From assembly GCA_964462705.1 (NCBI GenBank), contig CAYWYV010000003.1, positions 3,588 to 35,852 of the forward strand: a stretch of 32,265 nt of DNA, written 5' to 3'. The position numbers and the translations under genes were made by a program. Under the pieces are notes generated by a model, which worked only from the letters and a program-made list of their open reading frames with translations, did no database searches and was not told the origin of the DNA. Every line of letters starts with the position of its first letter. Within the stretch, counting starts at the first letter, position 1. Below are positions 7,623 to 9,729 of this stretch, one piece after another. This DNA is from an uncultured Dehalococcoidia bacterium (GTDB taxonomy: Bacteria; Chloroflexota; Dehalococcoidia; Lucifugimonadales; UBA826).

Positions 7623-8915
7623 ATGGGACGCCGTAAACTCGGTTTGGAAGTTAATAGGCCTGGCAGGACTCCGGGAGATCCAGATATATCCATACCAGTC
7701 GCACAGGACCTTCTTAAGGTAAAAGGGGTCCCTATTCGGGATCCGGAGGTTTCTTATTACAGCAGGGAATTTCCTCTTGAAAGCTATTCCCTGACTGAAA
7801 GCGCCTCTGCTGCATGGGCTGAGAAGGAAAGAGAGAAGGTTAGTCCAGAGATATCCAAACTTTATTCGGATTATCAGAAAAAAATACTTCCGTGGGTCGA
7901 TAGATTAGCGGATATTTCAAAACGTTCACCTTCATTGAGTTCCGATTGCACGGATATTTCCAATGCTGTGAGAGCTAAGGCCAGAGAATTGGGATATGGA
8001 GAGGTAGGGTTTGTTCGATTCGACAAAAGATACATTTACAGCAGTAGGCGGTCTCATGTTAGACAGGATCTACCTAATGCAATATGCCTTGCTGTAGAGC
8101 AAGACTACGTTAAGACTCAGGAAATACCTGGTATGACCGCAGAAGAGGCTCAAGGGGATGCCTATTTAAAACAGGCAGAGCTATCAATCATGCTGGCAGA
8201 ATATTTGCTCCAAAGTGGATATAGCGCCCAAATATCTGGGCCAGTATGGCATTTTGGACCTGTGATCCCCATGTTTGTGCAGGCGGGTTTAGGGCAACTT
8301 GGAGTTAACGGGCAACTATTATCTCCCCACTTTGGGTCTAGGGCGCGCCTACAGGTCCTCATAACTGATGCTCCTCTCACCTATGACTCGCCGGTTGATT
8401 ATGGGATATATAAGCTGTGCGAAACATGCCAGATTTGCTTTATGCGATGCCCGGGTAAGGCTATCCAGGCTCAAAGAGTCTGGTTTAGGGGAGTTGAGAA
8501 AAACAAACTAATAACCCGAAGGTGTCGTCCAGTTATGACGAGATTTTCTGGATGTGGAATATGCATAAAAGTCTGCCCAGTTCAAAAATATGGAATGGCT
8601 CCCGTTATGGAGCATTACCTGGAAACAGGAGAAATATTGGGAAAGGGCAGTGACGACTTGGAGGCGTTTGAACTTCAAGGTAAAGGATATTATCCATCAG
8701 GGAAACTTCCATCGTTTGATAGGGAATTTTTTGATATGCCTGAAGGGACTCAACAGGATCTTGCTTTGGATGAATTAAACACTCAATTGAGCGTTTCTGA
8801 AGATCTTACAGTGACTCAAAAAGAAGAAATATGGTCTCGTTTTCAGGAAAGAGTTGAAGCAGGAGCTTCCAAAGAACGGCGGATAGTTGATATGGGAATG
8901 GATATAGATGTATAA
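7623..8915 (+). CDS. Reductive dehalogenase-like / QueG-superfamily cobalamin-dependent 2x[4Fe-4S] protein
   Basis: KARELGYGEVG, AGLGQLGVNGQLLSPHFGSRARLQVLITDAPL, CETCQICFMRCP and C-x9-CGICIKVCP. Confidence 0.78.
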   Translation: MGRRKLGLEVNRPGRTPGDPDISIPVAQDLLKVKGVPIRDPEVSYYSREFPLESYSLTESASAAWAEKEREKVSPEISKLYSDYQKKILPWVDRLADISKRSPSLSSDCTDISNAVRAKARELGYGEVGFVRFDKRYIYSSRRSHVRQDLPNAICLAVEQDYVKTQEIPGMTAEEAQGDAYLKQAELSIMLAEYLLQSGYSAQISGPVWHFGPVIPMFVQAGLGQLGVNGQLLSPHFGSRARLQVLITDAPLTYDSPVDYGIYKLCETCQICFMRCPGKAIQAQRVWFRGVEKNKLITRRCRPVMTRFSGCGICIKVCPVQKYGMAPVMEHYLETGEILGKGSDDLEAFELQGKGYYPSGKLPSFDREFFDMPEGTQQDLALDELNTQLSVSEDLTVTQKEEIWSRFQERVEAGASKERRIVDMGMDIDV

Positions 8916-8952
8916 AATTGCCTAATCCCTTACATCACGATTGCAAAGTGGA

Positions 8953-8981
8953 TTGACCACAAATCGATGGTGTGTTAATTT
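8953..8981 (+). promoter_or_regulatory. Putative sigma70 promoter for the Rdx selenoprotein gene
   Basis: TTGACC (8953-8958)-N17-TAATTT (8976-8981) with extended -10 TG. Confidence 0.5.
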
Positions 8982-9014
8982 TCGGGTATTACTATTCAGA
9001 GTAAGGAGAGTTAT

Positions 9015-9290
9015 ATGGCTGGAGAAGGAAAGTTTGAGGTAGAGATTATCTATTGCGTCCCTTGAGCGCATCATGGTACGGCGGCCTGGATGGCCAACGA
9101 GTTTTTCGCAGAGGGTGGCAAAGATATAGCTATTAAGATAACCCCTGGTACGGGTGGAATCTTGCAAGTATTTGCCGATGGCGACAAGATATATGACAAG
9201 GCTGAAGAGGATGGACAGTTCCCTAATTTGCCCAGAGTAAAAGAGCTTAGGGCTGTTATAAGGGAAAAATTAGAGGCAGTGCCAGTCTAG
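9015..9290 (+). CDS. SelW/SelT/SelH (Rdx) family selenoprotein, 91 aa, UGA at codon 17 read as Sec
   Basis: SD AAGGAG then ATG 9015. Translation MAGEGKFEVEIIYCVP-U(TGA 9063-9065)-AHHGTAAWMANEF... continues in frame into the 9090-9290 ORF (PGTGGILQVFADGDKIYDK...FP), giving the Rdx fold with CxxU. Confidence 0.88.
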
Positions 9291-9321
9291 GCTTTTACTT
9301 GGTAAGAGTGAGATCTGAATT

Positions 9322-9357
9322 AAAAGGCCCCCGGGTTGCAGACCCGGGGGCCTTTTT
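9322..9357 (+). terminator. Intrinsic (potentially bidirectional) terminator
   Basis: AAAAGGCCCCCGGGT-TGCAG-ACCCGGGGGCCTTTTT: perfect GC-rich stem with U tail and A lead. Confidence 0.92.
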
Positions 9358-9390
9358 CCAACCCTTTTGTAATTCACCATTTGTAATATT

Positions 9391-9729
9391 ATGCAGCAGT
9401 TTGGGCAAAACAAAACGCCTTATTGGTTAGTATTTATAGCGGTGGTATTAGCAGGATTTTCATTCTCCCTGTTTTCAAATGGGAGATATATATGGGCTCT
9501 AACGCCGGCGTTTGTTTCAGTCATATTAGTGGGGATACTTTTTCTTCAATCTCTGAATAGTTCGAGAGTCCGCGGTACACTTTCTTTCCTGACTATTCTC
9601 CTAGCCGTTGTCTCGTATTTGTTATTTTCATATTGGGGATATATTTGGGCTGTAACTCCGGCCGTTGTGTCCGTAATTCTATTTATCATATCGGTGCGAA
9701 ACACAGAACCGATCAATTTATATGATTGA
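9391..9729 (+). CDS. Hypothetical 4-TM membrane protein with internal duplication
   Basis: Four hydrophobic segments; YIWALTPAFVSVIL and YIWAVTPAVVSVIL repeat 51 aa apart; overlaps the next gene by 8 nt. Confidence 0.7.
   Translation: MQQFGQNKTPYWLVFIAVVLAGFSFSLFSNGRYIWALTPAFVSVILVGILFLQSLNSSRVRGTLSFLTILLAVVSYLLFSYWGYIWAVTPAVVSVILFIISVRNTEPINLYD

Follow-up and report, generated by a model that had tools for sequence, protein, structure and literature searches.

The frame at positions 9015–9290 of the window, the whole 32,265-nucleotide stretch of DNA analyzed here, is a genuine and ordinary small SelW-like selenoprotein gene of a marine Chloroflexota genome. We consider it very probable that this frame encodes a 91-residue Rdx protein and that the UGA at codon 17 is read as selenocysteine. 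The observations behind this reading are the frame itself, the family and fold of its product, the conservation of the UGA among relatives with cysteine as its alternate, the coding-type conservation of the segment that precedes it, a hairpin that follows it, and the presence of selA and selB in the genome.

The gene is read directly from the sequence as 91 codons on the plus strand, from the ATG at 9015 to a TAG at 9288–9290, with a single TGA inside (9063–9065). A Shine-Dalgarno-like AAGGAG (9003–9008, plus strand) lies 6 nt 5′ of the ATG. Translated with TGA as U, the N-terminus is MAGEGKFEVEIIYCVPUAHHG, and translation and orthologue alignment together place a C-V-P-U redox motif at codons 14–17 (TGC-GTC-CCT-TGA, 9054–9065, plus strand), with the TGA as the selenocysteine codon. 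A preliminary description of this DNA had already recognized the Shine-Dalgarno motif, the start codon, the EIIYCVP-TGA-AHHG stretch and a frame that stays open through an Rdx domain, all of which we recover. The same description proposed a promoter-like element and a strong terminator for the gene. The promoter finds no backing, as a sigma-70 scan of 8700–9600 returns 0 sites; by eye, a TTGACC at 8953–8958 is followed after 17 nt by TAATTT, which agrees with TATAAT at just three of six positions. For the terminator, folding with ViennaRNA yields a perfect hairpin at 9322–9356 (−31.3 kcal/mol), 32 nt 3′ of the Rdx stop, built from a GC core (GGCCCCCGGG/CCCGGGGGCC) with an A4/T4 extension and followed by T, so that the terminator-like element occupies 9322–9357 on the plus strand. 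A consensus terminator scan of 8700–9600 lists 0 terminators and leaves this hairpin out, probably because its T-run pairs into the stem. Contigs from marine RNA libraries (four runs from four studies) span the gene from 9005 or 9023 onward with the TGA unchanged, and their differences 5′ of it (at 9044, 9047, 9050 and 9059, and at 9048 together with 9050) are synonymous or exchange Ile for Val. In two runs the contigs end at 9005 or 9006, positions that cannot be taken as transcript ends. Such contigs are a hint of expression, since the libraries can contain DNA and assembled contigs show neither ends nor levels.

The 91-residue product is a thioredoxin-fold protein of the Rdx (SelW/SelT/SelH) family, an assignment that draws on its translation, Pfam, profile searches, an AlphaFold model and Foldseek. 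With U scored as C, the Pfam Rdx profile (PF10262) matches residues 8–77, across the TGA, over its positions 1–70 of 74; the match scores 50.3 bits (cut-off 22.6) with an E-value of 2.9e-13. Two narrower NCBIfam models score below their cut-offs, TIGR02174 (CXXU_selWTH) with 32.0 versus 34.2 and NF041051 (SelTWH_Campy) with 37.4 versus 88, and the protein is therefore filed as Pfam Rdx/SelW-like. A profile built from 27 orthologues matches six solved bacterial SelW-related proteins at E-values of 2e-15 to 2e-13. The AlphaFold model, computed from the alignment of the 27 orthologues, has a mean pLDDT of 89 and the element order β1 (7–14), α1 (20–37), β2, β3, β4, α2 (72–88), with the CxxU motif between the strand at 7–14 and the helix at 20–37. 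Searched against the PDB with Foldseek, the model retrieves SelW-related structures in all of its top 11 matches (TM 0.72–0.87, and 0.76–0.87 for 2fa8, 2p0g and 2obk), then mouse SelW (TMq 0.78), then thioredoxins. Cys14 and position 17 are invariant across the 27 aligned orthologues, and Met26 is almost so.

The TGA is kept by most relatives. A six-frame search of 40 related genomes from the same genus, family and order recovers an Rdx orthologue in 29, and the aligned codon is TGA in 27 and TGT (Cys) in the other two, both from one genus; with the own locus included, the figures are 28 and 2 of 30. These counts refer to the 30 best loci, three weaker paralogue rows being left out. The homologues with TGA or Cys at the aligned position that the preliminary description would look for are thus in hand. 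The TGA forms come from 27 independent genomes in 19 genera and range from 99% down to 39% protein identity to the query. The 10 codons 5′ of the TGA evolve as coding sequence: counted for first, second and third codon positions, the columns that vary number 3, 0 and 9 in the 19 close Sec-form loci and 6, 4 and 10 in all 28. An ATG with an AGGAG-like motif is found 14–17 codons 5′ of the Sec site in 28 of the 30 loci, the remaining two offering GTG or TTG candidates only, and purifying selection persists on the codons 3′ of the TGA. The TGA is a conserved codon and not a defect. A sample of 300 further genomes from across the phylum yields matches with E-values up to 1e-5 in 101 of them; of the 109 match rows, the own row included, 86 contain one in-frame TGA, a count that disregards the position of the TGA and takes in two genomes flagged unpublished with one row apiece. 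Three orthologues (L034, L035 and L042) contain TGA twice in the same gene, once for Sec inside the frame and once as its final stop.

A putative SECIS-like hairpin lies inside the coding sequence at 9079–9099 (plus strand), with a stem of GGCC (9083–9086) and GGCC (9092–9095), a UGGAU loop (9087–9091) and outer pairs between 9079–9080 and 9098–9099. In an alignment of the 28 Sec-form loci that covers 72 nt around the TGA, RNAalifold proposes these six pairs, four of which have compensatory changes. In an eight-pair version, 76.9% of cells are paired, none of 500 shuffles attains the pairing or the covariation score of the real alignment, and no slid register scores as high. The most distant Sec forms carry the most weight: L048 has changed on both sides and its minimum-energy structure is a seven-pair stem with an identical loop, and L046 has its minimum-energy fold in the hairpin register. 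L044 and L045, two distant orthologues, are poor fits to the register. A corresponding hairpin is absent from both Cys forms. The own hairpin is short, with four GC pairs and two outer pairs, and in single-sequence folding the own sequence is no more stable than its shuffles (z +0.85 for 66 nt, z +0.25 for 48 nt); for the 48-nt piece, the energy minimum belongs to another structure. Backing for the putative element comes from comparative analysis, not from single-sequence folding, and the conservation is in part a protein constraint because the stem sits in codons for a conserved A-A-W-M-A. An Rfam search of 8900–9400 with E-values up to 10 finds nothing at the SECIS position and returns sub-threshold chance matches only, all of them over the terminator hairpin. 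Bacterial SECIS elements commonly have a small apical loop in which a guanosine is present, according to the accessible text of PMC1088965, and the hairpin at 9079–9099 fits that description.

The preliminary description had proposed that this organism inserts selenocysteine and had named selA, selB, selC and selD as the genes by which to judge it. The proposal gains support from the TGA and Cys forms described above and from two of these genes, found in an own assembly of 1.55 Mb in 172 contigs that is 73.65% complete and holds 27 tRNAs. The selA gene scores 547.1 bits (cut-off 267.9) and is on contig C1, not the window's contig. A full-length selB (353.7 bits, cut-off 242.25) is on the window's contig (G000:C3:382-2223, plus strand), ~1.4 kb before the first base of the window and ~10 kb upstream of the Rdx gene. 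The other two components were found only in relatives. No selD was found in the 73.65% complete assembly, where the best matches to the selD model (86.6 and 67.2 bits against a cut-off of 125) are AIR-synthase-family proteins that do not have a selD-like N-terminus; no tRNA-Sec was found among its 27 tRNAs, and an Rfam tRNA-Sec match just above threshold (47.1 bits) is a tRNA-Leu(taa) according to ARAGORN. Of the 40 relatives (G001–G040), 39 have selD, among them all three same-genus genomes, and 29 have tRNA-Sec, among them one of the three same-genus genomes (canonical, 65.9 bits). All 42 selD matches listed for these 39 relatives (for example L050–L055) contain one in-frame TGA each, and selenophosphate synthetase is thus itself a selenoprotein throughout this order. 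In the own genome, another frame with one in-frame TGA (L069, G000:C85:805-990, minus strand; ...FRCDYUVPF...) is AhpD-like (Pfam CMD, 27.4 bits), and its R-C-D-Y-U makes it a second candidate CxxU selenoprotein; the CxxU type is listed for AhpD-like selenoproteins in the accessible text of PMC1088965.

We propose that the Rdx codon is decoded by the standard bacterial mechanism. SelA would convert Ser-tRNA(Sec) to Sec-tRNA(Sec) with selenophosphate supplied by SelD. SelB-GTP carrying Sec-tRNA(Sec) would bind the small hairpin with the UGGAU loop, which starts 13 nt 3′ of the UGA, and would compete with release factor 2 in delivering its cargo to the ribosome, so that selenium enters the protein at codon 17. 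The resulting Cys14-x-x-Sec17 pair would sit at the end of strand β1 and before helix α1, the position of the CxxC center in thioredoxin-like proteins. The product would most likely be a small thiol-linked oxidoreductase that alternates between selenenylsulfide and selenol/thiol states.

Elsewhere TGA is an ordinary stop codon, as the preliminary description had stated. It ends 203 of the 887 stop-to-stop frames of at least 250 codons in the own genome, as well as the neighboring DUF503, TauE, phosphoribosyltransferase and 112-aa membrane genes, and it closes the ilvB frame at codon 584 of 587. The window contains 92 TAA/TAG-bounded frames of at least 90 codons with at least one TGA; we scanned the 51 with one or two TGAs for Pfam domains, and only in the Rdx frame does a domain cross a TGA 3′ of the start codon. 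No further selenoprotein gene was found among these 51 of 92 frames, and a PF00578 search of the own genome returned no frame with an internal stop.

Three other readings of the locus can be weighed against selenocysteine insertion. Standard gene callers report a 66-aa ORF that starts at the ATG at 9090 (9090–9290, plus strand), which would turn the upstream 16 codons and the TGA into an untranslated leader. Translation table 11 yields this ORF, public collections contain it from 615 contigs, and its start is the almost invariant Met26. The upstream codons, however, vary as coding sequence does (3/0/9 by codon position in the close loci), the Shine-Dalgarno-like motif precedes the ATG at 9015 and not the one at 9090, the Cys-form orthologues run through the same frame without a stop, and the shortened piece has neither strand β1 nor the CxxU center of the Rdx fold. 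We therefore regard the 66-aa ORF as an artefact, a C-terminal part without the active site, and as a real product it is extremely improbable. The TGA might alternatively stand for an original TGC or TGT, altered by nonsense mutation or misread in sequencing or assembly, leaving a pseudogene or a plain Cys protein. It is a single base away from either codon, and two orthologues do carry TGT; against this, the identical TGA recurs in 27 independent genomes of 19 genera at protein identities as low as 39% and in contigs from RNA-library runs of four studies, and the codons downstream of it are under purifying selection. The relatives' loci have in practice already refuted a mutation or an error, and we give it a negligible chance.

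A third reading accepts that the UGA is translated and assigns it a residue other than selenocysteine, either cysteine delivered by a tRNA-Sec-like tRNA-Cys or whatever a general UGA suppressor would insert. Recoding of UGA to cysteine by a tRNA-Sec-like tRNA-Cys is a phenomenon on record, cysteine is functionally tolerated at the site in two relatives, and neither tRNA-Sec nor selD was found in the own, 73.65% complete assembly. The genome nevertheless retains an intact selA (547 bits), for which making Sec-tRNA(Sec) is the sole known role, and a full-length selB on the very contig of the window; relatives of the same genus have selD, itself TGA-bearing, and one of them has the canonical tRNA-Sec. 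General suppression conflicts with the 203 of 887 long frames that end in TGA. UGA-to-Cys recoding in Chloroflexi is not treated in the accessible text of PMC5424206. On balance, recoding to another residue is very improbable.

The preliminary description implied novelty, which the Rdx selenoprotein does not have, since it belongs to the best-known marine bacterial selenoprotein family. In their accessible text, two studies of marine SelW-like selenoproteins (Zhang, Fomenko & Gladyshev 2005, PMC1088965; Zhang & Gladyshev 2008, PMC2398784) present SelW-like proteins as the selenoprotein family of greatest abundance in marine metagenomes, with gene counts of 48 for the Sargasso Sea and 427 for GOS, with Cys homologues forming a minority and with a higher frequency in marine than in non-marine samples. 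Our protein shares with them the Pfam family (then pfam05169, now Rdx), the CxxU motif, the marine habitat and a SECIS element (here putative) that follows the UGA directly and has a G in its small apical loop. As far as these texts go, there is no difference in kind; the present copy comes from Chloroflexota and has the motif Y-C-V-P-U-A-H-H. The solved bacterial SelW-related proteins 2fa8 (Agrobacterium Atu0228), 2obk, 2oka, 2ojl, 2p0g and 3dex have 27–34% identity to it at TM 0.72–0.87 and share the β1-α1-β2-β3-β4-α2 layout with the redox motif after β1; their structure titles name no substrate. In two alignments, 2fa8 and 2obk read Y-C-T-Q-C, with Cys replacing Sec, where the present protein has Y-C-V-P-U. 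Mouse SelW (2npb) shares the fold (TMq 0.78) and the CxxU motif but just 16% identity. Eukaryotic SelW depends on a SECIS in the 3′-UTR and a different insertion machinery, whereas the putative element described here lies inside the coding sequence right after the UGA. Mammalian SelW is described in the accessible text of PMC1088965 as a CxxU protein that interacts with glutathione.

The biology is thus already known: the protein is an ordinary representative of a family described long ago, from a lineage already known as a selenocysteine user; the gene marks this lineage as selenium-dependent. According to the accessible text of the 2026 paper on the BSepDB database (PMC13326102), the ten bacteria richest in selenoprotein genes include two Dehalococcoidia genomes, which have 46 and 49 of them; the same text describes truncation at Sec-UGA codons as a systematic annotation error. 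Among papers found on SAR202 and selenocysteine, none deals with the present topic by title or abstract. The value of the present analysis is one of annotation. The preliminary description had predicted that gene callers would cut the protein to 66 aa and lose the active site, and the exact truncated sequence is indeed what the public protein collection contains on its 615 contigs. Members of the 90% cluster of this piece are named 'hypothetical protein [Chloroflexota bacterium]' or, in IMG, 'predicted Rdx family selenoprotein', so the family has already been recognized on the fragment; from the public records, residues 1–25 are missing, as is the catalytic Cys-x-x-Sec center. With its records truncated in this way, the Rdx gene is missed by called-gene censuses of selenoproteins or redox proteins in abundant marine Chloroflexota.

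Just one observation has some novelty: the Rdx gene is kept next to an RdhA-like gene. Positions 7623–8915 (plus strand) of the window encode a 430-aa cytoplasmic-type protein of the reductive-dehalogenase/QueG superfamily (cobalamin, two 4Fe-4S clusters), which scores 108 bits with the NCBIfam RDH model, under its cut-off of 160, and has NpRdhA (4ras, E 2e-22) and PceA as its best PDB matches. An RdhA-like gene, 61–94% identical, lies directly upstream of Rdx, co-oriented and ~100 nt away, in 16 of the 18 same-family relatives with an Rdx gene; the two exceptions make up the Cys-form genus. On the downstream side, genes are conserved within the genus but not beyond it, apart from TauE, which is also kept in one further genus. 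In this Chloroflexota family, the SelW-like protein could be a dedicated redox partner of the upstream RdhA/QueG-superfamily protein, which would make the latter the first defined partner for a bacterial SelW-like protein; we rate such a partnership as unlikely. A search for a common partner gene at 12 further loci (11 order-level and one same-family Cys-form) gave heterogeneous neighbors and none that is shared: CoA-transferase III is found at two loci, 2-hydroxyacid dehydrogenase at three, and QueG, a DsbA-like gene and others at one each, the true QueG occupying the upstream position at the order-level locus L044. On the other side of the Rdx gene, positions 9391–9729 (plus strand) encode a 112-aa predicted membrane protein that has no Pfam or NCBIfam match and diverges fast, with 50–70% identity within the genus. 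It looks like the result of an internal duplication, with GRYIWALTPAFVSVILVG in its first half and WGYIWAVTPAVVSVILF in its second.
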